Shown here piece by piece: positions 1 through 23,163 of a stretch of DNA of 64,000 bases; the first letter of the stretch is position 1, and each line of letters opens with the position of its first letter. Below the pieces are notes generated by a model. The model did not search any database and had not been told where the DNA came from. It worked only from the letters and a program-made list of their open reading frames with translations. The position numbers were made by a program, and so were the translations under genes. Source of the stretch: Escherichia phage vB_EcoM_LNA4; sequence record MZ311864.1, one strand, 5' to 3'.

Positions 1-629
1 TTTCCTGCGGATAGCCCCTCCAAGAACTTCTTACCGATTAAATACGCATCGGCGTAGTCAGCCTTTCCTGCTGCAAGAGTAACACCGTCTAACCACCCCG
101 GATAGTCGTAATCAACGGCCTTAACCATCATGGCTTTGTCCATCTTAACTTTGGAGCGTGATGATACCATTTTATTCTTCTTTTTGTCAAGCTTTTCCTT
201 AGTTACCCACTGCTCTTCCTCTGGAAGGAGGCTACGGGCAAAAGACTTAACAGAAGTCGGTGCAACAGTATGGATGTTAAAGTATTCAATAAAGTGATTA
301 CCACAACCATCCAAGCTAAGGGCAATGCAGTAGAACAGACCTGCAAGGTCCCTTGTGGCACTACCAATAGACCCAAGACTCAGTGCTTCCATCACATAAT
401 CATCTGGAGAATACTCAGTACACAGTTCATTTATCCTTTTACAGATATGCTCGATCTGCTCATAAACGGTGTCAAAGTAGTAAACTTCCGGGTTTTGCTT
501 TCCCTTGCTCTTGGTAGAACCAGTCCTGATCATCTCCCGATAAATAGGAGTCCCATCACTCCAGATAACAACGGCACAATGGGACAAAGACTGATCAACA
601 GACATCAAAACATAAGGGAACTCACTCAT
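1..629 (-). CDS. RNase H-fold nuclease, RuvC-like putative Holliday-junction resolvase (3' end beyond window start)
   Basis: Minus-strand ORF starting at ATG 629-627, checked codon by codon and open to position 1 (>208 codons). N-terminus MSEFPYVLMSVDQS. with Asp/Glu spacing reminiscent of RuvC. Absent from the supplied ORF track because it has no stop in the window. Confidence 0.3.
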   Translation of the reverse strand, partial: MSEFPYVLMSVDQSLSHCAVVIWSDGTPIYREMIRTGSTKSKGKQNPEVYYFDTVYEQIEHICKRINELCTEYSPDDYVMEALSLGSIGSATRDLAGLFYCIALSLDGCGNHFIEYFNIHTVAPTSVKSFARSLLPEEEQWVTKEKLDKKKNKMVSSRSKVKMDKAMMVKAVDYDYPGWLDGVTLAAGKADYADAYLIGKKFLEGLSAG

Positions 630-6277: not shown

Positions 6278-6741
6278 TATGCACGTACCTCTGTTACCTT
6301 CACGGTTGCTTCACCGCGAAGCTGGATGTTAGAACCATCATCGAGAGTGAGAATGATATCGTCGCCACTGATTTTGTGACCCTTAACGACATAATCTTTA
6401 CCCCACATCTCTACCTTATCGCCCATCACGACATTTTTCGCCTTGTAATCACCAGGCAGGCGATCTTCATCGCTAACCGCTTCGTAAAGGTCGCTAAAAG
6501 CCTGTGGAGACATTGCTGTGAACTGATCGCCCACCTTTACAATGTAATCGCCTGGAAACGCCTGAACGCCGTTAACGTCCATATTTCGGATATCCCGTGT
6601 ATGGATCTCAGAATCTTTCCATACCCCGGTCTCGATCCACTTGGTCACTTGACCAACCCCGGTGCTAGACCCATTGAATACGTGTGCTTCAACCTCTTGA
6701 GGTTTACGACTATAGAATCCCATTAGTAGACTGGCTCCCAT
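6277..6741 (-). CDS. hypothetical protein
   Basis: 154-aa ORF, stop/start abutting its neighbours. Confidence 0.4.
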   Translation of the reverse strand: MGASLLMGFYSRKPQEVEAHVFNGSSTGVGQVTKWIETGVWKDSEIHTRDIRNMDVNGVQAFPGDYIVKVGDQFTAMSPQAFSDLYEAVSDEDRLPGDYKAKNVVMGDKVEMWGKDYVVKGHKISGDDIILTLDDGSNIQLRGEATVKVTEVRA

Positions 6742-8027
6742 GTTAATGTGTTAAGTTCACGTACACTCTGCCCCACTGGGAACTGAGGTACACCATCATC
6801 AGTACGCGACTGGAATGTAAAGTTGATGAAACCACCAACCAACAGCAACATCTTCGCCTGAGAACGTTCTGCGTGTGTGCCTTTCATTTTACAGTTGAAT
6901 CGTGTTCCGTCCTGTTCTTCGCAAAGCAGAACACCTTCACCATTTTTGTCCTCTACAGAATCAAGGACTTTGGCCTCACCGTCCTGGAACAGCTTCCATT
7001 TCTGGAGATCAGTGGATCGCTGCCCGAACTCATATTTACCTTTGAAGTTTCGGATGATAACACCCTCAAACCCGGCTTCCATGTAATAACCGATAAAGCG
7101 TTTCACAGATGCTTCGTCTTTCACGAACTCGCCATGAACGATAGCAATCTTAGGAACATCAATCTCACATTCTACAGCTTCAGCCACAGCATTAAGATCA
7201 GCCATACGGGTTTGATCATGATCCTGAGAGTGCCAAGGACTGTGTGCATTCACTGGAATATCAAAGATATGATACTCAAGGTCAAGACTCGAATAACCGC
7301 TATAACGATCAACATCCTTCACAGGTTTATACGTTGAAACAGCCCACACGTTACCGTCAAAGTCTTTCCAGAGGTGTTCCCCTGCTGCAACCGCCTTGTT
7401 GTAACGCTTGATATCTGCTTGATAATCTTTTTCGATCTCAGCTTCAATCTGCTCAGGTGTACGCCACTTCTTAGCGAGAGCAACAATCTTCTGTAGACTC
7501 AGGCCATGAATATACAGTTCCCCATCGAACTTGTCAAACCCGGAATGCTCTGCAAGTTCTTTAACCTGTTGCAAAAGAGCACCCTGCACTGGATACGTCT
7601 TATTACCACGGCTATTGAACACTGGAATGCCGTCCTTGTCAAGCGTGACAAGAGCACGAACGCCGTCGAGCTTTGGCTGCACATAGGCAGGATAAACGAT
7701 AGCTGAAAATCGTTTGATCGCATCATGCGCCAGCATAGGAGAGAAGTTCTCTTCCGTCTGCAACTCTTCCTTAGTCTCACGATAACCTAAACGGACTTGC
7801 TTTTCCCATTTGGATCTTGCTTCAAGAACCGCTTGGAATACGGCAGTAGTCTCATTGGAACGGCCAATGTTTTTCATTTCACACTTGGTACGCTTTTGTT
7901 GAATCTTTCCGTTTTCCTTACCGAAAGAAACGACAACCTCATCACCTTCTGTGGTTACATTCCAAACTTGGTACGATCCGTCTTTGTTGAGAGCGTACAG
8001 TGTTGGTGTGTCTAAACTAATTGACAT
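6723..8027 (-). CDS. ATP-dependent DNA ligase
   Basis: KLDGVR adenylation motif I, EGVIIRN motif IV and LQKWK motif V in a 434-aa protein. Confidence 0.7.
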   Translation of the reverse strand: MSISLDTPTLYALNKDGSYQVWNVTTEGDEVVVSFGKENGKIQQKRTKCEMKNIGRSNETTAVFQAVLEARSKWEKQVRLGYRETKEELQTEENFSPMLAHDAIKRFSAIVYPAYVQPKLDGVRALVTLDKDGIPVFNSRGNKTYPVQGALLQQVKELAEHSGFDKFDGELYIHGLSLQKIVALAKKWRTPEQIEAEIEKDYQADIKRYNKAVAAGEHLWKDFDGNVWAVSTYKPVKDVDRYSGYSSLDLEYHIFDIPVNAHSPWHSQDHDQTRMADLNAVAEAVECEIDVPKIAIVHGEFVKDEASVKRFIGYYMEAGFEGVIIRNFKGKYEFGQRSTDLQKWKLFQDGEAKVLDSVEDKNGEGVLLCEEQDGTRFNCKMKGTHAERSQAKMLLLVGGFINFTFQSRTDDGVPQFPVGQSVRELNTLTWEPVY

Positions 8028-8803
8028 TATTTCTCCTTCTTCTGTAAAGGCGTTTTTCCTTCAAGGTGGTCTTCAACCATCTTGATTAAACCGGGATTGC
8101 TGAAAGCATCAACAGCACCTGTACGATAAACGATAACACCCGCATCTTCATACATCAACTGCTCATCATAGCGAACACCGGGGTTAACAACCACCACCTT
8201 TGTTCCTCTCATGACAGCAGGGAAAAGTTCCCAGTTGAAGTTGATCACTGTGTTTGAACATCCAACCACAATCACCATATCCTCAGATGTCAAGCTGTCC
8301 AAGGTTGAGTATAGCTGCCCGTATGCAGGCGCAGTTTCACCAAAAAAGATAACGTTAGGCTTACACCAACCATAATCATCTGGGTCAATCTGCTCATAAC
8401 CAACATCAATGATCTTTTTAGGTGATCCAGCCTCAGTCTCAATCACCAACTCTTTCAGATAACCATGAATATAAAGCGTATCTTCTTTAGGAACACCTGC
8501 ACGTTCCAATAGATCATCAACGTTAGTTGTCAAGTTAATAACCTGGTTCGGATAGTTTTTATACCACTCTGCCACACGCATATGTGCAGCATTAGGATGC
8601 ACAGTTTGCAGTTCTGCACGACGCTTGTTATAAAAGGTGTGCGTCTTATGGTAAAAATTACCACGAAAGGCATGAATGTTGCAGACCTCTTCAAGGTCAT
8701 ACTCATCCCACAAGGCCTTACCGGAGTCGGTGTCAGTACGGAATGTACGAACACCGCTCTCAGCAGAGAAACCAGCACCACTAATTACATATAAACGCCT
8801 CAT
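8027..8803 (-). CDS. Sir2-family (sirtuin-like) NAD-dependent protein
   Basis: GAGFSAESGVRTFR, TTNVDDLLERAG and IHG motifs match Sir2 NAD-binding and catalytic signatures. Confidence 0.6.
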   Translation of the reverse strand: MRRLYVISGAGFSAESGVRTFRTDTDSGKALWDEYDLEEVCNIHAFRGNFYHKTHTFYNKRRAELQTVHPNAAHMRVAEWYKNYPNQVINLTTNVDDLLERAGVPKEDTLYIHGYLKELVIETEAGSPKKIIDVGYEQIDPDDYGWCKPNVIFFGETAPAYGQLYSTLDSLTSEDMVIVVGCSNTVINFNWELFPAVMRGTKVVVVNPGVRYDEQLMYEDAGVIVYRTGAVDAFSNPGLIKMVEDHLEGKTPLQKKEK

Positions 8804-9024: not shown

Positions 9025-9909
9025 TCACTGTAATTTCAATGAGTTACGCAGACGACGCTCTTGAGCATCACGGGTTTCCTGCGGAACGCTGTGAATAGAA
9101 TCATTGCCATGACGGTTCTCTACCACCAAGCTAATGACGCGATACCCATTCTCGGCTGCGAGGTCGAGGTATGGTTTCAGTTCTTTTTCACTGGTAGAGG
9201 TGTTAGACACGATGATCCTACGGAAATTCCAACCCATCATGTCCTTAACTTCTGACTGGCACCATGTGTGTGCCGCCTGAATATTCTCAGGTTTCCAGTC
9301 ATAAACACCATCTTCCGTATAGTGGAATTTATCTGCTTCACAGACAGGCCACAAACCCTCTGACAGCATCTTTCCCGTTGTCATATTACGAGCACCAATC
9401 AGATACGCACCAGGTTGTTCGTGAACTATATGCGGGTCAGAATCATCACAAATTTCAAACATTAAAGTCAAACAAGATTGCCCTACATGTGTCCACATGG
9501 ATGGGTGGTTTGCCTTTTCAACACCACTCAAAATATGAGTTTTTGCAATATCTGCAAATTCGGAATCAAGAGTTCCGGTGGTGGATACTAAAACATCGCC
9601 TTTATAAATTGAGGCCGCTGCCATAAAGCCATTAACTTTACGAGGTACACACACCAACTGGTCTCGTGGAACATCGGTATTATTCTCGAAGCGGTTGAAA
9701 ATCTTCGTGAAAGGCCAGATAACAACGTTGTCTTCTGCATCAACAACCATGCCACGGCACTCCAGAAGACGTGCGTCTGTGTGCCACAGGTTATCCCAGA
9801 ACACATTGTTCTTATATTTCAGAACAGACAGACCCGCGAACGGGCCTTCGGTATAAGTCTTTTTGGTTACAAGCTTTTTAGCAACAAGGTCATCTACGTT
9901 AAATTTCAT
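9025..9909 (-). CDS. hypothetical protein (KxNG nucleotidyltransferase-like motif)
   Basis: 294-aa ORF; PRKVNGF resembles ligase motif I, but the other ligase motifs are not convincing. Confidence 0.35.
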   Translation of the reverse strand: MKFNVDDLVAKKLVTKKTYTEGPFAGLSVLKYKNNVFWDNLWHTDARLLECRGMVVDAEDNVVIWPFTKIFNRFENNTDVPRDQLVCVPRKVNGFMAAASIYKGDVLVSTTGTLDSEFADIAKTHILSGVEKANHPSMWTHVGQSCLTLMFEICDDSDPHIVHEQPGAYLIGARNMTTGKMLSEGLWPVCEADKFHYTEDGVYDWKPENIQAAHTWCQSEVKDMMGWNFRRIIVSNTSTSEKELKPYLDLAAENGYRVISLVVENRHGNDSIHSVPQETRDAQERRLRNSLKLQ

Positions 9910-10113: not shown

Positions 10114-10509
10114 TTAACTACGCTTTTCGTAACCTTCTGCCTGATAGTAGGTAGTATTGTGCGGCGTTTCAATGCTAAAACTGATCTGGCAGAGTTCTTG
10201 GGCTAAGAATGTACCAAGTTCTACAGCCATGTCAAGGATTTCATGCTCAGGTCGCTCAAAGCGAGGATATTGCATGATCCGGACAGTCATACCGTCCTCA
10301 ACACCCCCGGTATACACGTAGGTACACGGGGAGATCTGCACACAAGCGCCCTTCATTACCCACTGGCGGCACAGGTTTTCAGCCTGATTGTAGTTCCCAG
10401 CGATGTGAATTGTTGCATAGAACGACTTAGAAGTCTTCTTTGGTAAAAAGTTACGTTTCTTATTGTGCATATTATTATCCGTGATCAGCAGTGTAAATTG
10501 GTTTAGCAA
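10114..10509 (-). CDS. hypothetical protein
   Basis: 131-aa ORF. Confidence 0.4.
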   Translation of the reverse strand: MLNQFTLLITDNNMHNKKRNFLPKKTSKSFYATIHIAGNYNQAENLCRQWVMKGACVQISPCTYVYTGGVEDGMTVRIMQYPRFERPEHEILDMAVELGTFLAQELCQISFSIETPHNTTYYQAEGYEKRS

Positions 10510-11071
10510 GGCACATCAGAACAGCTTCACGCATCGTCAAAGGACGACCATGCACATCCCAACCCACATCAAGAATACGTCCACCAGGGGCCGTGTAGGA
10601 GCCGTGGCTGTGACCGTGCAGCATTACCGACCCGTGGTGAGCTTTATTCCATGATGCAAACGGATAGTGGGACATACACACCTTCACCTTTTCTTTCCCG
10701 GTGCTGAACTCAATTTCCTTATAGTCCACGACTTCATGACCAAACTCACGGAAGATACGTTTTGTCTGATGGTTGTCATGATTACCACCAACCAGAATGA
10801 TCTTCCCATTGATACGGCTCAGGATATCACGAACTTTTGGCTCAACTTGCTTACCATAGGCAATAACGAAATCACCAAGGTGTGCCACCACATCGTCAGG
10901 CTTGACGTTTTTGTTCCACGTCTTAACCATGTCATCGTTCATTTTGACAACGGAGGCTGAGTCTTCTTTCGGACCATACAGGTTCTTACGGAACTTATCA
11001 CACGATGGGAAACCAAGAATGTTGGTGTGCCACCAGTGAGTGTCTGACGTGACGTGATCAATTTGAATCAT
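10475..11071 (-). CDS. calcineurin-like metallophosphoesterase (Ser/Thr phosphatase-like)
   Basis: DTHW, GDFV, GNHD and GHSHG metal-binding motifs. Confidence 0.6.
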   Translation of the reverse strand: MIQIDHVTSDTHWWHTNILGFPSCDKFRKNLYGPKEDSASVVKMNDDMVKTWNKNVKPDDVVAHLGDFVIAYGKQVEPKVRDILSRINGKIILVGGNHDNHQTKRIFREFGHEVVDYKEIEFSTGKEKVKVCMSHYPFASWNKAHHGSVMLHGHSHGSYTAPGGRILDVGWDVHGRPLTMREAVLMCLAKPIYTADHG

Positions 11072-17028: not shown

Positions 17029-17105
17029 GGTTCTGTAGCTTAGCTGGTTAGAGCGCTTCCCTCATAAGGAAGAGGTCGCAGGTTCAATCCCTGCCAGAAC
17101 TACCA
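17029..17105 (+). tRNA. tRNA-Met/Ile2 (anticodon CAT)
   Basis: 7-bp acceptor stem, anticodon loop CTCATAA, T-loop GGTTCAATCC, encoded CCA. Confidence 0.6.
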
Positions 17106-17119
17106 AACGAGGAGAGACC

Positions 17120-17287
17120 ATGAATAAGATTTATGATTTTTTCGGAATTGGTAAACCCAAGAGCATGTCTTCAAACTGGGACTCCAGAATGGACTCATCT
17201 GTAGGGAATAGTAATTCTGTGTACGACCGTTATGATGTTTCACTCGGTCTTCATAAAGAAACGAAAAAAGATTCAAAAAACGATTGA
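17120..17287 (+). CDS. small hypothetical protein
   Basis: 55-aa ORF with GAGGAGAG Shine-Dalgarno, directly after the first tRNA. Confidence 0.4.
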   Translation: MNKIYDFFGIGKPKSMSSNWDSRMDSSVGNSNSVYDRYDVSLGLHKETKKDSKND

Positions 17288-17312
17288 CAAAGGAAGTACG
17301 AGATATTAGTAT
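17284..17312 (+). promoter_or_regulatory. sigma70-like promoter TTGACA-N17-TAGTAT
   Basis: -35 at 17284-17289, -10 at 17307-17312; upstream of the ORF at 17357. Confidence 0.5.
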
Positions 17313-17356
17313 TACCAACGTCAACAAGACATTAGCAAATAGAGGAGAAATACAAC

Positions 17357-17686
17357 ATGGCTAAGAAAAACGCAACTAAGAAAGTTTCTGCAATCGACGC
17401 AATCAAACAGCCTTTCCAGTTTGAGTCGAAGTCAACGCAGACTCACTCTGCACCACACGATGTTCGTCTGGGCGGTGTAACCAAGACCGTTTCCGTTCGT
17501 AAAAAGCGTCGTGATGAAGACGGCAACGTTGTATTCATCTGGGAATCCGTTTCCCGCGTTGAAGGTGGTCAGGTAATTTCTGCCTCACACCGTGTTCGCA
17601 CTGGCAAGACCAAGCGTGAACGCGCTGGTAAAGCCAAAGACGCTAAGGTTGTTGAAGCCGTAGCGCCGAAAGGTAAGAAGAAGTAA
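17357..17686 (+). CDS. basic Lys/Arg-rich hypothetical protein
   Basis: 109-aa ORF with AGAGGAG Shine-Dalgarno and highly basic termini. Confidence 0.5.
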   Translation: MAKKNATKKVSAIDAIKQPFQFESKSTQTHSAPHDVRLGGVTKTVSVRKKRRDEDGNVVFIWESVSRVEGGQVISASHRVRTGKTKRERAGKAKDAKVVEAVAPKGKKK

Positions 17687-17894
17687 TAAAGCTTTACTGA
17701 ACTGATGGTTTGTGTTGAAATGGCGCTGTCGAAAATTGTCGGCAGGGTCATAGTAAACAGTCGCCCCAGTTCGGTAATTAATTCCTCCGGCATGGGGATA
17801 GACGAAGCTGGCTGCGGCGATGCGTCTTAAAATAAAGGGCTGCGGCAACCGTGACGATTCCGTGCAACGTCTTGAAAAACACGGACCTGATTTC

Positions 17895-17970
17895 GGGGTA
17901 TTAACTCAGCGGTTAGAGTAGCGGCCACTTAAGCCGAAGGTCGAAGGTTCGAATCCTTCATGCCCCACCA
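17895..17970 (+). tRNA. tRNA (anticodon loop CACTTAA; candidate Lys-CTT with A33)
   Basis: Clean acceptor, D and T arms (GGTTCGAATCC) and CCA; position 33 is A rather than U. Confidence 0.45.
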
Positions 17971-18084
17971 TTTTTTGGAATGAGAGAGATACGGGTTCGA
18001 CTCCCGTTCTTGCTGGCCCGGCTCGCGTAATGGCGCAGGGCGATAGCTTAAATGGACGAAAGTGCTCTTGTTTCAAAAAACTTC

Positions 18085-18113
18085 TTGACAATGAAATTTT
18101 TAAAGTGTAGTAT
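18085..18113 (+). promoter_or_regulatory. sigma70-like promoter TTGACA-N17-TAGTAT
   Basis: -35 at 18085-18090, -10 at 18108-18113; upstream of the ORF at 18145. Confidence 0.5.
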
Positions 18114-18144
18114 CACAACTCAATTTTACGCAAAGGAGAACTTA

Positions 18145-18756
18145 ATGTCTGATTCTAAAACTGTAATTTCTGTAACTGAACGCGCTACCAAAGCTGTTGC
18201 AACTGCTGCAACTGGCCTGAGTAAGGTTGTTGCTGAACTGCAATCTCTGGCTGAAGGCTCTGAACGTATCAGTCAAGAAATTCAGTTCAAACAGCAAGAG
18301 CTTGGCAATATCGAAGTCCAGTTCAATGAAAAACTGGCTGAAGAAAAATCTAAGCTGAAGATCAAAGTTCTTGAAAATGAAGACGGTGTACTGAACACCC
18401 TTCTGAAGGCTCGTGGCCTTGTAGCTATCGAACCGGGTGTTGTAGATGGTCTGCGTCACGAACTGGCTGTCGCTCAGTCTGGCAATGAAGATGCGATCAA
18501 TACAGCAGTTGATGCTGCAAAACGTTCTGCTGCTATCGAACTGAACGCTGTTAAGTCCAATCTGGAATCAGCACACAAAGTTGCGATTGCTGAACTGAAC
18601 GCCAATACCAAGGCAGACAAAGATCGTATCGCAATGCTGACCGAACAGCTTGAAGCTGCCCGTGCAGACCTGAAAGCAGAACGCGAAACCCGTCTGGAAA
18701 TCGCTAAAGCTGATGCGAACCGCCAGGGTGTTGTAGTTAACACTGGTAAAAACTAA
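18145..18756 (+). CDS. coiled-coil hypothetical protein
   Basis: Track ORF trimmed to ATG 18145 with AAAGGAG Shine-Dalgarno; Ala/Glu/Lys-rich heptad-like sequence. Confidence 0.5.
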   Translation: MSDSKTVISVTERATKAVATAATGLSKVVAELQSLAEGSERISQEIQFKQQELGNIEVQFNEKLAEEKSKLKIKVLENEDGVLNTLLKARGLVAIEPGVVDGLRHELAVAQSGNEDAINTAVDAAKRSAAIELNAVKSNLESAHKVAIAELNANTKADKDRIAMLTEQLEAARADLKAERETRLEIAKADANRQGVVVNTGKN

Positions 18757-18765
18757 TACCGCCGT

Positions 18766-18783
18766 GCCGACACGGATGTCGGC
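18766..18783 (+). terminator. GC hairpin (terminator-like, no T-run)
   Basis: GCCGACA-CGGA-TGTCGGC immediately after the stop at 18756. Confidence 0.3.
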
Positions 18784-18833
18784 AAACATTTGAAGTACAT
18801 TTAAAATTTAAAGTTCATTGAGAGGAGAATTAT

Positions 18834-19481
18834 ATGTCTACTAAGATTTCTGTAACCCGCGCTCTGGCAACTCTGACCAAGATCGAGGGCAAGATCGAAA
18901 AGCGTATCGACCAGTTGAACACTGTTCAGATCGCAAAAGGGACGGAAGATCACCGTTCGATCCCAGGTTCTCTGGTTAGCATTGCTGACTTCGAGACTTC
19001 TGCTAAGGCAGACTTCCAAGGCCTGAAAGACCTGCTGGCAGTACGTGATGAACTGAAGGCGAAAGTTGTTCAGTCCAACGCAGTAACTCTGGTCACCGTT
19101 GGTGGTAAAGAGATGACAGTTGCTCAGGCAATTGAAGGCAAGCGCACAGTTGCTTACAAAGAACTGCTCCTGTCCAAGCTGAAAGCGCAGTACAACTTCG
19201 CTCAGAAGCGCCTTGATAAAGAAGTCGCTGACTTCGAAACCAAGCTGGAACAGGCCCGTGCTCCGTACATCAGTCGTGACAAAGCGCCTGATCCAGAGCA
19301 GATTAAGACGGTAGAAGGTCCGACCCGTCTGATGAGCACACCGTCTATCGTTGACCCGCTGGGTCTGGCAGACGTAATCCGAAATCTGGAGACAGAGATC
19401 GAAGACTTCAAATCCAACGTTGACTTTGTGTTGTCCGAGTCTAACGCACGGACTGAAGTGGAGATTGAGGGATCAATCTAA
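18834..19481 (+). CDS. hypothetical protein
   Basis: 215-aa ORF with GAGAGGAG Shine-Dalgarno. Confidence 0.5.
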   Translation: MSTKISVTRALATLTKIEGKIEKRIDQLNTVQIAKGTEDHRSIPGSLVSIADFETSAKADFQGLKDLLAVRDELKAKVVQSNAVTLVTVGGKEMTVAQAIEGKRTVAYKELLLSKLKAQYNFAQKRLDKEVADFETKLEQARAPYISRDKAPDPEQIKTVEGPTRLMSTPSIVDPLGLADVIRNLETEIEDFKSNVDFVLSESNARTEVEIEGSI

Positions 19482-19489
19482 AATAACTT

Positions 19490-19521
19490 GAGGAATTATG
19501 AAAAACATCTTGTAATTCCTC
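19490..19521 (+). terminator. hairpin GAGGAATTA/TAATTCCTC (terminator-like)
   Basis: 9-bp inverted repeat with a 14-nt loop, 9 nt after the stop at 19481. Confidence 0.3.
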
Positions 19522-19697
19522 TCGTTAACTGATAAAGTTTCAAAATGCTGTTTTTTGGTTAGCGAAGTTGGAAACATCTTGCCTCTACCGAGGCCGGAGG
19601 TTAAACTGCCTCGAACTTAATCATAAGGATGATACTTAACGTATGTTTCCGCAGACCACAACTCTGCCGAAAATATCGAATCGCGAATTCGAAAGAC

Positions 19698-19739
19698 TTC
19701 AAAGTTCAACATTCAAAGATTAAAGTTCAAAGCTTAATG
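19698..19739 (+). repeat. three tandem 14-bp units, each starting TTCAAAG
   Basis: TTCAAAG at 19698, 19712 and 19726 (14-bp period) within a 340-bp ORF-free region. Confidence 0.4.
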
Positions 19740-19868
19740 TTTAAACTTGAAACTTCTAAACCACAAAGCTAAAATTTCGTTGATTATTAAAATCCTGGGT
19801 CAAAGGTCCTTAGCTCACAAGATATGGCTAACCACACCTCCGGGCAGTTAATCGGAAACAGCATTCTT

Positions 19869-19943
19869 GCTCCTAAAGCATAAGTGGCGATGCAGCGGCC
19901 TTGTAAGCCGAGGAAGTGGGTTCGATTCCTACTGGGAGCACCA
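19869..19943 (+). tRNA. tRNA-Thr (TGT)
   Basis: Acceptor GCTCCTA/TGGGAGC, anticodon loop CTTGTAA, T-loop GGGTTCGATTCC, CCA encoded. Confidence 0.6.
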
Positions 19944-19949
19944 AACAAT

Positions 19950-20023
19950 TCGTTGATAGCCTTAGCGGTAAAGGCCCCCTCTGCGCAAGGGGTTCAGTGG
20001 TTCGAATCCACTTCAGCGAGCCA
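19950..20023 (+). tRNA. tRNA-like element, non-canonical (anticodon-position GCG, C37, 3-nt variable loop); possible pseudo-tRNA
   Basis: Good acceptor stem, T-arm AGTGGTTCGAATCCACT and CCA, but the anticodon loop CTGCGCA and D/variable regions are atypical. Confidence 0.3.
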
Positions 20024-20025
20024 AT

Positions 20026-20134
20026 GCAGGGTAGGCGGTTTGTCAACCGCGAGGTCCATCCAGACCTGAAAATAGCTCTCGGCTTGGAGTGGAGAGTGAA
20101 TACATAGGTGGTTAGATTCCACCACCCTGCTCCA
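20026..20134 (+). tRNA. tRNA-like element with a 38-nt insertion between anticodon arm and T-arm
   Basis: 7-bp acceptor GCAGGGT/ACCCTGC, D-stem GCGG/CCGC, anticodon arm AGGTC-CATCCAG-GACCT, T-arm GGTGG-TTAGATT-CCACC and CCA; far too long for a standard tRNA. Confidence 0.25.
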
Positions 20135-20325
20135 AAACATATTTTAAAGTGCATTAGCTCAGATTATTTGATTCACGGACTGATCATCTGTGAGGAGAAT
20201 GAGCCTAACTGAATGGAGTTTCAACGACAAAGGCCACGTTGTTGTAACAGAAGTTCTAAGGTCGTAGAGCGCTGTTCGCGGAGAACAGAGGTCGGTGGAG
20301 TCACCATGCAGCTTAAAATATGTTT

Positions 20326-20403
20326 GCGCTCTTGGTCCAATCTGGTAGAGGCATGGGTGTTAAGCTCCCAGGGTTCCCGGTTCGAGTCCGGGAGGGCGCA
20401 CCA
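20326..20403 (+). tRNA. tRNA with anticodon TAA (Leu-type) in a short-variable-arm scaffold
   Basis: Acceptor GCGCTCT/AGGGCGC, T-arm CCCGG-TTCGAGT-CCGGG, CCA; anticodon stem has a closing mismatch, loop GTTAAGC. Confidence 0.4.
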
Positions 20404-20406
20404 GAA

Positions 20407-20481
20407 CGGGGTATAGTCTAGAGGATAGGCAGGAGTCTTCTAAACTCCTTTACGTAGGTTCGAATCCTACTACCTCGACCA
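20407..20481 (+). tRNA. tRNA-Arg (TCT)
   Basis: Canonical cloverleaf; anticodon loop CTTCTAA; T-loop GGTTCGAATCC; CCA. Confidence 0.65.
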
Positions 20482-20486
20482 CTTAT

Positions 20487-20560
20487 GCGCGGTTGCTGGA
20501 GTGGCAACAGCTTCGGCTGCAAACCGAATGTCAGGTGTTCGATTCACCTACCGTGCTCCA
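20487..20560 (+). tRNA. tRNA-Cys (GCA)
   Basis: Anticodon arm TTCGG-CTGCAAA-CCGAA; T-arm AGGTG-TTCGATT-CACCT; CCA. Confidence 0.6.
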
Positions 20561-20599
20561 AGTTGTTGATATTTTTTGCTATAAATGATAAAATAACCC

Positions 20600-20628
20600 T
20601 TGACAGAGATATTGAACTCTGATAACAT
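20600..20628 (+). promoter_or_regulatory. sigma70-like promoter TTGACA-N17-TAACAT
   Basis: -35 at 20600-20605, -10 at 20623-20628; upstream of the ORF at 20647. Confidence 0.45.
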
Positions 20629-20646
20629 GAATAAGTGGGGTTAATT

Positions 20647-21012
20647 ATGGCAACAAAACAAGCACTTACCAAGCGTCGTAGAGGTAAGGGTCGTCCTTTA
20701 AAAGAGGAGTCTAACGCAATTCAGCTTGAGAAGAACATTCTTGATCTGAAAACAAAGATGATTGCTATGATCCCTGATGCACATATGGTCCTTCGTGATC
20801 TTATGATGAACAAGGATACTAAAGACAACATCCGTGAGAATATTGCTCGTTTCGTTATTGAGGAAGGTAAGCAAATGCTTTCTGATTACTTCGATGAAGA
20901 GAACGAAAATGAAGAAGAAACAAAGAACGTCGATGATGGTTCCGGAAAGGGCGCTGATAAACCAGTAGCAAAACCTTTCTCAACTGACATCGTACAGTTC
21001 AAACAAGGTTAA
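20647..21012 (+). CDS. hypothetical protein with basic N-terminus
   Basis: Track ORF trimmed to ATG 20647; TKRRRGKGRP basic segment, acidic C-terminal half. Confidence 0.45.
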   Translation: MATKQALTKRRRGKGRPLKEESNAIQLEKNILDLKTKMIAMIPDAHMVLRDLMMNKDTKDNIRENIARFVIEEGKQMLSDYFDEENENEEETKNVDDGSGKGADKPVAKPFSTDIVQFKQG

Positions 21013-21014
21013 TT

Positions 21015-21102
21015 GGGGCGGTTCCCGGAGCGGCAAACGGGCGGGATTGTAAATCCCTTGGCATCGCGTCCTTCGTAGGTTCGAGTCCTACTCGCCCCAC
21101 CA
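21015..21102 (+). tRNA. tRNA-Tyr (GTA), long variable arm
   Basis: Acceptor GGGGCGG/TCGCCCC, anticodon loop TTGTAAA, 17-nt variable arm, T-arm GTAGG-TTCGAGT-CCTAC, CCA. Confidence 0.55.
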
Positions 21103-21108
21103 ATTAAC

Positions 21109-21183
21109 GGGAGTATAGCTCAGTGGTAGAGCAAACGGTCGATAACCGTTAGGTCGCTGGTTCAAGCCCAGCTACTCCCACCA
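21109..21183 (+). tRNA. tRNA-Ile (GAT) with C33
   Basis: Canonical arms (GCTCAGTGGTAGAGC D-arm); anticodon loop TCGATAA has C at position 33. Confidence 0.5.
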
Positions 21184-21189
21184 ATTTAA

Positions 21190-21263
21190 GCGGTTAAGCA
21201 CAAGGTGTGTCGCAGGCCTTCCAAGCCTCGCAGAGTAGGGTTCGATTCCCTCTAACCGCTCCA
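21190..21263 (+). tRNA. tRNA-Gly (TCC)
   Basis: Acceptor GCGGTTA/TAACCGC; anticodon loop CTTCCAA; short D-arm; CCA. Confidence 0.55.
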
Positions 21264-21270
21264 AATAAAT

Positions 21271-21346
21271 GCTCCTATCGGCTAAACGGTCAGGCCGCCA
21301 GACTTTCAATCTGGAAATCCGAGTTCGATTCTCGGTGGGAGTGCCA
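21271..21346 (+). tRNA. tRNA-Glu (TTC)
   Basis: Anticodon arm CCAGA-CTTTCAA-TCTGG; T-arm CCGAG-TTCGATT-CTCGG; CCA. Confidence 0.6.
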
Positions 21347-21353
21347 AATTTGT

Positions 21354-21430
21354 AGGGACTTAGCACAATTGGCTAGTGCAGCGGATTCCAAATCCGCAGG
21401 TTCTGGGTTCGAATCCCAGGGTCCCTGCCA
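21354..21430 (+). tRNA. tRNA-Trp (CCA)
   Basis: Anticodon arm GCGGA-TTCCAAA-TCCGC; T-arm CTGGG-TTCGAAT-CCCAG; CCA. Confidence 0.6.
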
Positions 21431-21435
21431 GTTTT

Positions 21436-21511
21436 AGGAGGATGGTGTAATTGGTTAGCACACGGGGCTTTGATCTCCGGAGTTAGGGTTCGAGTCCTTA
21501 TCTTCCTGCCA
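21436..21511 (+). tRNA. tRNA-Gln (TTG)
   Basis: Anticodon loop CTTTGAT; T-arm TAGGG-TTCGAGT-CCTTA; CCA. Confidence 0.55.
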
Positions 21512-21625
21512 AGTTTGAGTGTTTTTATTTGAAAGCACTCATGCGTGGCCTAAGCATTTATCAGATGATGTTCAACCTGTGACGTTGAGGAAGTGGGAGC
21601 GATACCCACAGGTCACCCCAATTTT

Positions 21626-21718
21626 GGTGGAATGGTCGAGCGGTTTAAGACAGCACCTTGGAAAGGTGTCGGCCCCTTCAAACGGGGTCCGTAGGTTCGA
21701 ATCCTACTTCCACCGCCA
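21626..21718 (+). tRNA. tRNA-Ser (GGA), long variable arm
   Basis: Acceptor GGTGGAA/TTCCACC, anticodon loop TTGGAAA, ~21-nt variable arm, T-loop GGTTCGAATCC, CCA. Confidence 0.6.
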
Positions 21719-21732
21719 CTTTAGGAGATATT

Positions 21733-21888
21733 ATGCAGAAACTTTTGCGTTGTAAAAAGGTATTTGGACGCTGTAAGATTCACGGTAGTAACTGTGGTGT
21801 TGCAGATGAAATTCAATCAATCCCTATTACTCGTGCGAAAGAAAAAGCAGATCTTCGTAAAGAAATTAAAGAACAATTGGAAGATTAA
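21733..21888 (+). CDS. small Cys-rich hypothetical protein
   Basis: 51-aa ORF (track ORF trimmed to ATG 21733, AGGAG Shine-Dalgarno); its last codons overlap the 5' end of the next tRNA. Confidence 0.35.
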   Translation: MQKLLRCKKVFGRCKIHGSNCGVADEIQSIPITRAKEKADLRKEIKEQLED

Positions 21889-21969
21889 CCCTAACGGTAA
21901 GGGATCTCTTTGCTAAAGAGACAGTAGCCCCTGAAAAGGGGTGTGTCAGTTCAAGTCTGACATCTTCCT
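21879..21969 (+). tRNA. tRNA-Ser (GCT), long variable arm, CCA not fully encoded
   Basis: Acceptor GGAAGAT/ATCTTCC, anticodon arm TCTCT-TTGCTAA-AGAGA, variable arm with CCCC/GGGG stem, T-arm GTCAG-TTCAAGT-CTGAC. Confidence 0.5.
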
Positions 21970-21971
21970 CC

Positions 21972-22060
21972 GGAGAGCAGGCTGCATGGTGCAGACTCCG
22001 GTTTGAACCCGGTCCCATCGTAGCGATACGGTGACAGTTCGATTCTGTTGCTCTCCTCCA
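21972..22060 (+). tRNA. tRNA-Ser (TGA), long variable arm
   Basis: Acceptor GGAGAGC/GCTCTCC, anticodon loop TTTGAAC, long variable arm, T-loop AGTTCGATTCT, CCA. Confidence 0.5.
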
Positions 22061-22065
22061 AATAT

Positions 22066-22152
22066 GGGTTGGTAGCCAAGCGGCGACGTATGTCTAAGGC
22101 ACTCGACTTTTAATCGAGGGATCGTTGGGTTCGAATCCCACCCGACCCACCA
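22066..22152 (+). tRNA. tRNA-Lys (TTT) with expanded D region
   Basis: Acceptor GGGTTGG/CCGACCC, canonical anticodon arm CTCGA-CTTTTAA-TCGAG, T-loop GGGTTCGAATCCC, CCA; about 10 extra nt in the D region. Confidence 0.45.
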
Positions 22153-22157
22153 TACAA

Positions 22158-22260
22158 CGGGACGATAGTTTAATGAGGCTGGAAATGCGACGGCAACCAG
22201 CGGAGCAGAATGACGGGCATCCAGGACCGTAGGTGAGGTGCAAACCCTCAGATCCCGCCA
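22158..22260 (+). ncRNA. structured tRNA-like element (unclassified)
   Basis: 5' CGGGA pairs with 3' TCCCG followed by CCA; internal hairpins including TGAGG-TGCAAAC-CCTCA; not foldable into a standard cloverleaf by hand. Confidence 0.2.
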
Positions 22261-22321
22261 AATTGAAATAAGTTAAAATAATCCTTGCAAAAGATTGTTT
22301 TCACTGATAAAGTAATTACAT

Positions 22322-22410
22322 GGTTCTTTGACCGAGAGGCCGATGGTAGCAGGCTGTTAACCTGCCTGGAGTAATCCACGACGAAGGTTCGAATCCTTCA
22401 GGAACCGCCA
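22322..22410 (+). tRNA. type-II (Tyr-like scaffold) tRNA with anticodon GTT and discriminator G73 (candidate Asn decoder)
   Basis: Acceptor GGTTCTT/AGGAACC, Tyr-like D region CCGAGAGGCCGATGGTA, anticodon arm GCAGG-CTGTTAA-CCTGC, 17-nt variable arm, T-loop GGTTCGAATCC, G73-CCA. Confidence 0.45.
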
Positions 22411-22453
22411 AATTAGGTGATACGCTACCTTAAGTGCGAACTTGAAAATTAAT

Positions 22454-22530
22454 GGGGCCGTGGCTGACAAGGTAATGGTGCCGCACTGTCTATGCGGAAA
22501 ATGAGGGTTCGATCCCCTTCGGTCTCGCCA
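22454..22530 (+). tRNA. tRNA-Asp (GTC)
   Basis: Acceptor GGGGCCG/CGGTCTC (with G-U pairs), anticodon arm CCGCA-CTGTCTA-TGCGG, T-loop GGGTTCGATCCCC, CCA. Confidence 0.5.
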
Positions 22531-22713
22531 ATTTGATATGTTGATGTAAATTGCCGGAAGGCACTCAAAATGAGTTCGACATATCAAACCAAATACGCTC
22601 TTGCAGGAAAGGTTAGCCTCCCTGCAATGTCACACTAGGTGATCAGAGCGGATCAAATTAGCTAGCCAGCGATACCAGTTGCAGTGTCTGGGACAATTAA
22701 AATTCTGCACCTT

Positions 22714-22791
22714 CGGAGCGTAGCGCAGTCTGGTCAGCGTGGGAGCCTTGGATGCTCTGGGTCGCAGGTTCGAATCCTGCCGCTCCGACCA
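22714..22791 (+). tRNA. tRNA-Pro (TGG)
   Basis: Acceptor CGGAGCG/CGCTCCG, anticodon loop CTTGGAT, T-loop GGTTCGAATCC, CCA. Confidence 0.6.
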
Positions 22792-22796
22792 ATTTA

Positions 22797-22872
22797 GCAG
22801 GTATAGTTCAACTGGACAGAGCATCAGTTTACGAAGCTGAGAATCGGGGTTCGAATCCCTGTATCTGCACCA
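22797..22872 (+). tRNA. tRNA-Arg (ACG)
   Basis: Acceptor GCAGGTA/TATCTGC, anticodon arm TCAGT-TTACGAA-GCTGA, T-loop GGGGTTCGAATCCCT, CCA. Confidence 0.6.
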
Positions 22873-22907
22873 AATTAAGGCTTGGATTTCTTCGGACCCA
22901 AGCGCAC

Positions 22908-22984
22908 GGGCGATTGATGGAATTGGTATACGTGTCGGATTTAGATTCCGAATTTTGGGGGTTCGAGTCCCCTGTCGCCCACCA
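22908..22984 (+). tRNA. tRNA with anticodon TAG (Leu-type) in a short-variable-arm scaffold
   Basis: Acceptor GGGCGAT/GTCGCCC, anticodon arm TCGGA-TTTAGAT-TCCGA, 5-nt variable loop, T-loop GGGGGTTCGAGTCCCCT, A73-CCA. Confidence 0.5.
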
Positions 22985-22991
22985 ATCCTTC

Positions 22992-23067
22992 GGGACTGTA
23001 GCTCAGTTGGTAGAGCACCTGATTGAAGATCAGGGTGTCGGTGGTTCGAATCCACTCGGTCCCGCCA
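22992..23067 (+). tRNA. tRNA-Phe (GAA)
   Basis: Textbook cloverleaf: D-arm GCTCAGTTGGTAGAGC, anticodon arm CCTGA-TTGAAGA-TCAGG, T-loop GGTTCGAATCC, CCA. Confidence 0.7.
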
Positions 23068-23073
23068 AATAAT

Positions 23074-23146
23074 TGCGAGCTAGAATTCTGGTGAATTCAC
23101 GAGTCTCATAAGCTTGTTCAGAGGGGTTCGATTCCGCTGCTCGCAA
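23074..23146 (+). tRNA. tRNA-Met/Ile2 (CAT), CCA not encoded
   Basis: Acceptor TGCGAGC/GCTCGCA, D-arm GAAT/ATTC, anticodon loop CTCATAA, T-loop GGGGTTCGATTCC. Confidence 0.5.
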
Positions 23147-23163
23147 CTAACAGAGGACTTAAT

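Follow-up and report, generated by a model that had tools for sequence, protein, structure and literature searches.

The tRNA gene at 22322-22410 and its place in the array

We analysed a stretch of 64,000 nucleotides (nt) from Escherichia phage vB_EcoM_LNA4 (MZ311864.1), hereafter called the window, with a focus on a transfer RNA (tRNA) gene that combines the asparagine anticodon GUU with a long variable arm. When the 64-kb window was scanned with ARAGORN, an 89-nt tRNA-Asn(gtt) was called at 22322-22410 on the plus strand, with the anticodon at position 35 of the tRNA. The Rfam model RF00005 scored the same interval at 51 bits, above its gathering score of 29, and a covariance model of our own, described below, gave 102.6 bits. 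The minimum free energy (MFE) fold was a cloverleaf with an additional hairpin and the anticodon loop CUGUUAA; its z-score was -0.81, a statistic that is usually uninformative for single tRNAs. The conserved tertiary positions U8, A14, G15-C48, G18G19, U33, T54-Psi55-C56, and A58 could be read directly from the sequence. A sequence-only reading of the locus had described an 89-nt tRNA with GUU, discriminator G73, and a 17-nt variable arm, whose loop was CTGTTAA rather than one with a GUA anticodon. ARAGORN, Rfam, the MFE fold, and direct reading agreed on this description. The parts of the gene are listed in Table 1 together with other features of the window.

Table 1. Parts of the tRNA gene and further features of the window
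Feature	Position	Strand	Remarks
Acceptor stem, 5' strand GGTTCTT	22322-22328	+	pairs with AGGAACC at 22400-22406; U6-G67 wobble; ARAGORN bracket structure
D arm ACCG-AGAGGCCGA-TGGT	22331-22347	+	Ser/Tyr type with enlarged 9-nt D loop; ARAGORN bracket structure
Anticodon arm GCAGG-CTGTTAA-CCTGC	22349-22365	+	anticodon GTT at 22356-22358
Variable arm, 17 nt	22366-22382	+	C, TGGA/TCCA stem, GTAA loop, CGAC tail
Variable stem TGGA/TCCA	22367-22370/22375-22378	+	4 base pairs (bp); GNRA loop GTAA at 22371-22374; unpaired tail CGAC at 22379-22382
T arm GAAGG-TTCGAAT-CCTTC	22383-22399	+	ARAGORN bracket structure
Discriminator and encoded CCA	22407-22410	+	G73 at 22407, CCA at 22408-22410; read from the sequence
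tRNA array containing the Asn gene	17029-23147	+	ARAGORN, Rfam
tRNA-Tyr(GUA)	21015-21102		A73
tRNA-Lys(UUU)	22066-22149	+	loop CTTTTAA, D loop of about 20 nt; Rfam 50.5 bits, missed by ARAGORN
tRNA-Asp(GUC)	22454-22530	+	loop CTGTCTA
tRNA-Leu(UAA) and tRNA-Leu(UAG)	20326-20403, 22908-22984	+	77-78 nt
Gly(UCC)-like tRNA	21189-21263	+	aberrant D arm, folds as a cloverleaf
tRNA-like fragments in array spacers	22155-22268, 22536-22590, 17975-18040, 20025-20131	+	
Four genes upstream of the array	9025-9909, 10475-11071, 8027-8803, 6723-8027	-	encode, among them, a T4 Rnl1-family RNA ligase (PF09511), a metallophosphoesterase, a Sir2-family protein, and an ATP-dependent DNA ligase

The gene has the architecture of class II tRNAs, namely a variable region of more than 10 nt that contains a hairpin and an enlarged D loop, although its anticodon lies outside the class II isotypes (Leu, Ser, Tyr, or selenocysteine, Sec). 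It departs from the typical bacterial tRNA-Asn, with its 4-5 nt variable loop and U1-A72 pair, in the 17-nt variable region and in G1-C72. The acceptor stem of 7 bp and T stem of 5 bp give the normal 7/5 geometry instead of the 8/4 or 9/3 geometry of allo-tRNAs. The identity set for asparaginyl-tRNA synthetase (AsnRS), G34, U35, U36, and G73, is complete, and the bacterial tRNA-Ser set G73, G1-C72, and G2-C71 is present as well. The variable stem is not of the Ser type in length or orientation (about 5-7 bp with about one unpaired 3' nt), as it has 4 bp and a 4-nt tail, and G73 and GUU stand in place of the A73 and GUA of bacterial tRNA-Tyr.

The window belongs to a Seunavirus-like member of the Vequintavirinae and, over 24 kb, is 95% identical to Enterobacter phage EC152 and 94.8% identical to Cronobacter phage GAP31. 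Its tRNA array covers most amino acids, with 22322-22410 as the sole tRNA for Asn; no other GTT tRNA was found in the window by ARAGORN, or by Rfam at either threshold, in agreement with the earlier statement that the array lacks a canonical tRNA-Asn. Homologues annotated as tRNA-Asn were 97-99% identical in phages VIK251, 4MG, GAP31, and EC152, and further homologues were 79-81% identical in the Avunavirus phage Av-05, in phage TH18, and in two unrelated Salmonella phages of 349 kb, 7t3 and SE_PL. Alignments showed that the long-arm gene persists in four lineages of phages and that four of its stems have undergone compensatory changes. The D stem ACC/GGT is ATC/GAT in 7t3, the anticodon stem GCAGG/CCTGC has the variants ACGGC/GCCGT and CCAGC/GCTGT, the variable stem TGGA/TCCA is GGGAG/CTCCC in Av-05 and GAGA/TCTC in 7t3, and the T stem GAAGG/CCTTC is GCTGG/CCAGC in 7t3. 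By contrast, the GUU loop, G73, and the entire acceptor stem were invariant in the homologues (4MG, Av-05, TH18, 7t3, and locus L041). This combination is what a working tRNA, and not a relic, would be expected to show. A functionless class II tRNA gene that acquired an anticodon mutation and is decaying or drifting neutrally in the array would fit the several degenerate tRNA-like pieces nearby and the lack of a predicted promoter beside the gene. It is nevertheless highly improbable, given that compensatory changes are kept between lineages with a divergence of about 20% and that the covarying arm is present in over 100 independent examples, described below.

Around the Asn gene, the tRNA genes follow the order Ser(GGA)-Ser(GCU)-Ser(UGA)-Lys(UUU)-Asn-Asp-Pro in the window, 4MG, KpS8, AV124, Mydo, Av-05, and TH18. 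In the Mydovirus phages KpS8 and AV124, the Asn slot is occupied by an 85-nt GUU tRNA with a 15-nt variable hairpin (GAGC-ATTA-GCTC-TAT), whose D arm (GTTC...GAAC) and anticodon arm (GCGGA-CTGTTAA-TCCGC) are nearly those of E. coli tRNA-Asn; the E. coli reference sequence used here was found at 100% identity in 5425 of 5426 E. coli genomes. In Proteus phage Mydo, the slot holds an ordinary 75-nt tRNA-Asn. No second Asn tRNA was present in the fetched tRNA arrays of these relatives (KpS8, AV124, Mydo, and the window type). The occupation of one slot by three structurally different GUU tRNAs argues that they do the same job. The KpS8-type tRNA, which has 125 records in total and is found in further cultured phages such as Phapecoctavirus, has the appearance of a host-type tRNA-Asn to which an arm with the geometry of the window tRNA's arm was added. 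The arm geometry shared by the KpS8 form and the window form, two forms only, suggests convergence and hence selection for the arm. Taken together, 22322-22410 is most likely a genuine, conserved, and functional tRNA-Asn on a class-II-like body, as judged from its sequence and context.

A tRNA-Asp gene directly follows the long-arm Asn gene both in 7t3 (locus L003, 4001-4170) and in the Vequintavirinae (window 22322-22530), and the Asn acceptor stem is identical between jumbo phage 7t3 and the Vequintavirinae. This suggests that the Asn-Asp block may have moved horizontally between unrelated phage groups.

Composition of the scaffold and long-armed relatives in phages

The earlier reading had placed the tRNA on a Tyr scaffold and described a close parallel to the window tRNA-Tyr. 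The parallel holds for architecture, since both tRNAs have a short variable stem followed by four unpaired 3' nt. It does not hold for sequence: 56 of 89 positions were identical to tRNA-Tyr (D region 12/20, variable region 9/17), no better than with the three Ser tRNAs of the window (48-57 of 89-93 over the whole tRNA, D region 11/20). Among phages, the best BLAST matches outside Asn were tRNA-Ser(GCU) genes of Pseudomonas phages, and nt 8-26 matched tRNA-Ser(GCU) of Pseudomonas phage PPSC2 at 19 of 19 positions, compared with 13 of 19 for E. coli tRNA-Tyr. In the 5426 E. coli genomes, the best match was the host tRNA-Tyr, with 78% identity over nt 10-78; its anticodon arm differs only by A36U and a compensatory 31-39 pair, and its T arm is identical.

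We also scored the tRNA, full-length and with the anticodon masked, against profile hidden Markov models built from phage tRNAs from which its own clade had been excluded. With the full sequence, the long-arm Asn profile gave 43.1 bits and long-arm Lys 38.6 bits, followed by Ser (24.5 bits, the best canonical profile), long-arm Thr (19.2 bits), short Asn (17.5 bits), and Tyr (15.8 bits). With the anticodon masked, the scores were 30.0 bits for long-arm Lys, 22.9 for long-arm Asn, 20.5 for Ser, and 10.6 for Tyr. The 100 nearest neighbours among ~2600 anticodon-masked phage tRNAs included 43 long-arm Asn, 22 long-arm Lys(UUU), 6 Ser(GCU), and 6 Tyr tRNAs. In long-arm Asn, Lys, and Thr tRNAs, as in Tyr tRNAs, the variable stem comprises 3-4 bp and is followed by 3-4 unpaired 3' nt. 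Phage Ser tRNAs, by contrast, mostly have a variable stem of 4-7 bp, with a 1-nt tail in 73 of 95, and those of the window have 5-6 bp. The scaffold is thus mixed: a D arm that points to Ser(GCU) is combined with an anticodon arm, a T arm, and a variable-arm geometry that point to Tyr. To that extent the term Tyr scaffold is apt, but the perfect match of nt 8-26 to Ser(GCU) and profile scores well above that of phage Tyr speak against it. Both possible origins would be short paths, as Ser(GCU) could become Asn by one change (C35U, with G73 already present) and Tyr by two (A36U and A73G).

To survey such tRNAs, IMG/VR was scanned for the loop CTGTTAA followed 21-30 nt later by a T-loop motif, a spacing that requires a long variable region, and the matches were checked with ARAGORN. 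Among the matches listed, 104 of 124 were confirmed as Asn(GTT) tRNAs of 81-94 nt, and these were very diverse. Scans of the same design confirmed 61 of 117 among the matches listed for Lys(UUU) and 20 of 90 for Asp(GUC), for which the full listing comprised 93 stretches, compared with 0 of 121 among the matches listed for the Phe control. In cellular genomes (185,579 species), 12 of 120 among the matches listed were long-arm Asn tRNAs and the remainder were mostly chance matches; several of the 12 lay in tRNA arrays and are probably of phage origin, and others were archaeal intron-like cases. At loci not chosen for long-arm Asn, the long form accounted for 2 of 15 and 0 of 18 Asn tRNAs. Long-arm Asn is therefore a minority form, concentrated in particular phage lineages, and among cultured phages of E. 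coli, Klebsiella, and Cronobacter its carriers include 4MG, GAP31, KpS8, and Phapecoctavirus. Where it is concentrated, tRNAs for Cys, Met, Thr(UGU), Glu, and Val may have a long arm too.

Long arms with 3-4 bp and a 3-4-nt tail were also seen on phage Lys(UUU/CUU), Asp, Thr(UGU), Cys, Met, Glu, His, Ile, Val, and Trp tRNAs; example loci within the IMG/VR set L010-L335 are L026 (1655-1739), L313, L225, and L106 (1828-1915). In the examined IMG/VR loci, no long arm was seen on Phe, Ala, Gly(GCC), or Thr(GGU) tRNAs, and within Thr the long arm was present in 19 of 87 UGU tRNAs compared with 0 of 31 GGU tRNAs. A covariance model was built from 13 long-arm Asn genes. When 135 distinct long-arm tRNAs were aligned with it, 95% of the structure cells were paired, compared with 56% for shuffled sequences and about 40% when partners were slid, in an alignment whose fit to the model somewhat inflates the pairing. 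For the first three pairs of the variable helix, pairing stood at about 93%, and each of them had 39-63 double-sided changes. The helix was likewise supported among the 79 distinct Asn sequences, in which the arm consisted of 1 nt, a stem of 3-4 bp, and, as a rule, a GNRA loop (GAAA, GTAA, or GCAA); a 4-nt tail ended it in 69 of the 79.

GenBank records already label the homologues as tRNA-Asn; what appears to be undescribed is the class II architecture and its breadth across phage isotypes. No description of long-arm tRNA-Asn or of other long-arm class I isotypes in phages was found in the full-text literature searched, although the wider literature may hold one. A 2020 review of non-canonical tRNAs does not mention phages (PMC7609411), and the Sf14 paper (2025) reports that isotype-model mismatches are common in phage tRNAs and leaves them unexplained, with nothing further on the subject.

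Amino acid identity

In E. coli, asparagine identity resides in the anticodon and G73 and can be transplanted into tRNA-Lys, whereas serine identity resides in the long arm, G73, and the acceptor stem, with no contribution from the anticodon; A73 is a critical determinant for tyrosine, and G73 is an antideterminant for the tyrosyl- and leucyl-tRNA synthetases (TyrRS and LeuRS) (PMC9976931). In the long-arm phage tRNAs, the discriminator fitted the isotype of the anticodon: G in 107 of 115 Asn, A in 57 of 70 Lys(UUU), U in 16 of 16 Cys, C in 8 of 8 His, A in 11 of 12 Glu, and G in 21 of 23 Asp tRNAs. The U1-A72 pair was about as frequent in long-arm phage Asn (65/115) as in short Asn (44/75). 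Isotype-true discriminators and a similar frequency of U1-A72 indicate that the arm is an add-on to otherwise cognate tRNAs. In the 47 long open reading frames of the window, including the structural-gene region, AAC (39.6 per 1000 codons) and AAT (15.2 per 1000 codons), jointly denoted AAY, together account for 5.5% of codons.

We propose that host AsnRS would charge 22322-22410 with asparagine through the anticodon G34-U35-U36 and the discriminator G73, and that the charged tRNA would decode AAC and AAU. Charging with asparagine is likely on these grounds, and the gene as a whole is probably a functional phage tRNA-Asn on a class-II-like scaffold that is expressed and served by host AsnRS. 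The suggestion of an Asn decoder built on a type II scaffold is thereby favoured by synteny with an ordinary tRNA-Asn, by conservation and covariation, and by the isotype-matched discriminators of long-arm phage tRNAs.

The other suggestion made earlier, a tRNA-Tyr derivative that is still charged by TyrRS and misreads AAY as tyrosine, was not supported. It would account for the Tyr-like variable-arm geometry, the near-identity of the anticodon arm, the identical T arm, and the 78% match to the host gene. Yet with G73 in place of A73, which was found in 76 of 77 phage Tyr tRNAs surveyed, a critical Tyr determinant is lost and a TyrRS antideterminant is gained, so that charging by TyrRS is very unlikely; moreover, the same phage has a separate Tyr(GUA) tRNA with A73, and the Tyr profile score lies far below that of long-arm Asn. 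We regard tyrosine insertion by this tRNA as scarcely credible.

Serine deserves closer consideration. If the gene descended from tRNA-Ser(GCU) by C35U, it might be a substrate of seryl-tRNA synthetase (SerRS) or have a dual Asn/Ser identity, with serine at AAY codons as tolerated noise or as deliberate mistranslation. The Ser(GCU)-like D region, the phage BLAST matches, and the rank of Ser as the best canonical profile agree with such a descent, and C11-G24 is present in addition to G1-C72, G2-C71, and G73, in an identity system that does not consult the anticodon. However, the 4-bp stem and 4-nt tail contrast with the stems and 1-nt tails of Ser tRNAs, C11-G24 is lost in the 7t3 homologue, and the gene lies in the Asn slot that an ordinary tRNA-Asn fills in relatives. 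Other long-arm phage tRNAs carry A73, U73, or C73 and are unfit for SerRS, and serine insertion at 5.5% of codons would damage the phage's own proteins. Taken as a whole, we consider it unlikely that this tRNA is a SerRS substrate or has a dual identity. With respect to the arm itself, serine acceptance by tRNA-Tyr reportedly required, in addition to G73, a longer variable stem in the work of Himeno et al. in 1990.

Several points weigh against the assignment as a functional tRNA-Asn served by AsnRS. Class IIb synthetases approach the tRNA from the variable-loop side, as in the yeast complex of aspartyl-tRNA synthetase with its tRNA, and the extra arm might hinder AsnRS. Since G1-C72, G2-C71, G73, C11-G24, and the long arm together form much of the Ser identity set in the window subfamily, some mis-serylation of 22322-22410 may occur. 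In a scan around the gene, neither a sigma-70-type promoter nor a terminator was called beside it; the upstream element TTGCAA-17-TAAAGT matches only 8 of 12 consensus positions. In 36 of 117 loci, a long-arm Asn tRNA co-occurs with a short Asn(GUU) tRNA (for example L015, L029, L050, L081, and L114), and some loci have two long-arm copies, so that the long form may not simply duplicate the short one. The inflated pairing in the model-fitted alignment belongs to these points as well.

Possible roles of the arm and comparison with known tRNAs

What the arm contributes was considered in relation to tRNA-targeting immunity. According to the PARIS study, AriB cleaves the E. coli tRNAs Lys(UUU), Thr(UGU), and Asn(GUU) between positions 40 and 41, cleavage depends on the motif U36-A-A-U39 and on D-loop U16, positions equivalent to 16, 39, and 41 affect cleavage of tRNA-Lys, and T5 copies of the same three tRNAs neutralise PARIS (PMC12409363). 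Compared with E. coli tRNA-Asn (U16, U39, and C41), the tRNA at 22322-22410 has A16, C39, and U41, and C39 breaks the UAAU motif; its variable arm emerges a few nt from the AriB cut site. The arm would make the tRNA a poorer substrate for host tRNA-cleaving defences such as PARIS AriB, and the armed tRNA would remain usable by AsnRS, EF-Tu, and the ribosome. As judged from sequence, such a protective role against host tRNA nucleases is possible, though we hold it only tentatively.

A broader version of the idea is that the GNRA-capped hairpin is portable armour, added repeatedly to class I tRNAs (Asn, Lys, Thr, Asp, Cys, Met, and Glu), which would block host defences that cleave or modify tRNAs while leaving the cognate synthetase undisturbed. 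At least two routes would have led to it: an anticodon switch in a Ser/Tyr-like class II tRNA, and, as exemplified by KpS8, a host-like tRNA-Asn that received the arm as an insert. The defences affected would be those that hold the tRNA by its anticodon stem and D-loop region; AriB, with its cut between 40 and 41, is an example. This generalisation is somewhat more doubtful still. Two results tell against the arm as a shield. Retention of U39 did not differ between long-arm (49%) and short (45%) phage Asn tRNAs (p=0.66), which lends the idea no support, and tRNAs that PARIS does not target, those for Cys, Met, and Glu, can have long arms too. For Lys(UUU), retention was 69% in long-arm and 49% in short tRNAs, a weak trend (p=0.02, uncorrected). 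Other explanations are conceivable: the arm could stabilise the tertiary core of phage tRNAs that are under-modified, serve some phage or host factor as a handle, or simply be inherited from a class II ancestor.

A different function would be that of a decoy, in which the tRNA, charged or not, soaks up a host tRNA nuclease or a tRNA-binding defence protein as a competitive inhibitor. The co-occurrence of long and short Asn tRNAs would suit a decoy, the invariant acceptor stem across diverged homologues suggests a sequence-specific partner, and the possibility that over-expressed viral tRNAs inhibit AriB by competition is raised in the PARIS study (PMC12409363). Against it, the gene is the sole Asn tRNA in an array spanning most amino acids, it retains everything that charging and decoding require, namely CCA, G73, U33, A37, and the T loop, and the present analysis indicated no particular binding partner. 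A decoy is distinctly unlikely by comparison with an asparagine-decoding tRNA.

The genes upstream of the array include a member of the T4 Rnl1 family, which is known for the repair of nuclease-cut tRNA, and genes for NAMPT and phosphoribosyl pyrophosphate synthetase lie nearby in GAP31. The neighbourhood looks like an RNA-repair and nicotinamide adenine dinucleotide (NAD)-salvage counter-defence region, as far as the predicted products tell. Given the ligase, the lineage plausibly faces tRNA-targeting defences. The neighbouring tRNA-Lys(UUU) is annotated as an 84-nt tRNA-Lys in 4MG and has a normal length of 76-77 nt in Av-05 and KpS8; tRNA-Lys(UUU) is the main PARIS target, in which AriB is reported to read U16 of the D loop.

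Other tRNAs of the array are also unusual. The two Leu tRNAs lack the long arm expected of Leu, whereas Leu(UAG) is 85-86 nt in KpS8, AV124, and Mydo, so that the phage pairs a long-arm Asn with short-arm Leu tRNAs. The tRNA-Asp(GUC) has U at position 37, where a purine is nearly universal, and the Asp tRNA at the same place in 4MG has a quite different sequence with a normal CTGTCAC loop. The Gly(UCC)-like tRNA was called neither by ARAGORN nor by the Rfam tRNA model, and the tRNA-Sec model gave it only 29 bits. Among the spacer fragments, one is a 110-nt piece ending in ...GATCCCGCCA, and another is a mini-hairpin, TGATATG...CATATCA-A-CCA, with a T-loop-like GAGTTCGAC and a fold z of -2.8. 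Decayed tRNAs and processing elements are both possible identities for these fragments.

In textbook accounts, only the Leu, Ser, Tyr, and Sec tRNAs of bacteria have long variable arms, and for those systems the arm is treated as an element of identity or discrimination. A conserved class-II-bodied tRNA-Asn with more than 100 phage relatives, alongside long-arm Lys, Thr, Asp, and Cys tRNAs, challenges this limit and suggests that class IIb and other synthetases tolerate the additional arm and that phages gain something from it. The class bears on isotype-specific annotation models, which are confused by phage tRNAs, and on the design of orthogonal or nuclease-resistant tRNAs. If the arm did protect against tRNA-targeting immunity, this would be a new counter-defence principle, and if it were armour in the wider sense, the division into class I and class II would be a target of an arms race instead of a fixed property of each amino acid.

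Among known tRNAs, canonical tRNA-Asn(GUU), such as that encoded by E. coli asnT/U/V/W, shares with 22322-22410 the loop CUGUUAA, G73, an A37 suited to N6-threonylcarbamoyladenosine (t6A), and a U33-G34-U35 suited to queuosine, and, as Mydo's ordinary tRNA-Asn, the same array position. It differs in its 5-nt variable loop, 4-bp GTTC/GAAC D arm, U1-A72, U39, and C41, compared with the 17-nt hairpin, Ser/Tyr-type D arm, G1-C72, C39, and U41 of the window tRNA; positions 36-41 read UAAUCC in E. coli and U36-A-A-C39-C40-U41 here. Bacterial tRNA-Tyr(GUA) shares the short variable stem with 3-4 unpaired 3' nt and near-identical anticodon and T arms, but has A36, A73, and a 3-bp variable stem, whereas the window tRNA has U36, G73, 4 bp with a GNRA loop, and an unrelated acceptor stem. 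With tRNA-Ser(GCU), the common elements are G73, G1-C72, G2-C71, C11-G24, and the D arm of the phage form, at a distance of one anticodon mutation; for that isotype the variable stem is too short, the 3' tail too long, and the anticodon GUU.

Nematode nev-tRNAs likewise combine a long arm with an anticodon outside Leu, Ser, and Tyr; like allo-tRNAs, they are charged according to their body (with Leu, Ser, or Ala) and hence recode. The T5 variants of Lys(UUU), Thr(UGU), and Asn(GUU) resemble the window tRNA as phage copies of nuclease-targeted tRNAs with substitutions at or near 39-41 and at 16; they are described as point substitutions, with no variable arm mentioned in the accessible text of the study (PMC12409363). 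Bacterial allo-tRNAs share the long arm with an anticodon outside Leu, Ser, and Tyr and have an 8/4 or 9/3 acceptor/T geometry (PMC7609411). Unlike these, 22322-22410 has the 7/5 geometry and a discriminator that fits the amino acid of its own anticodon, and ordinary decoding would therefore be expected of it.

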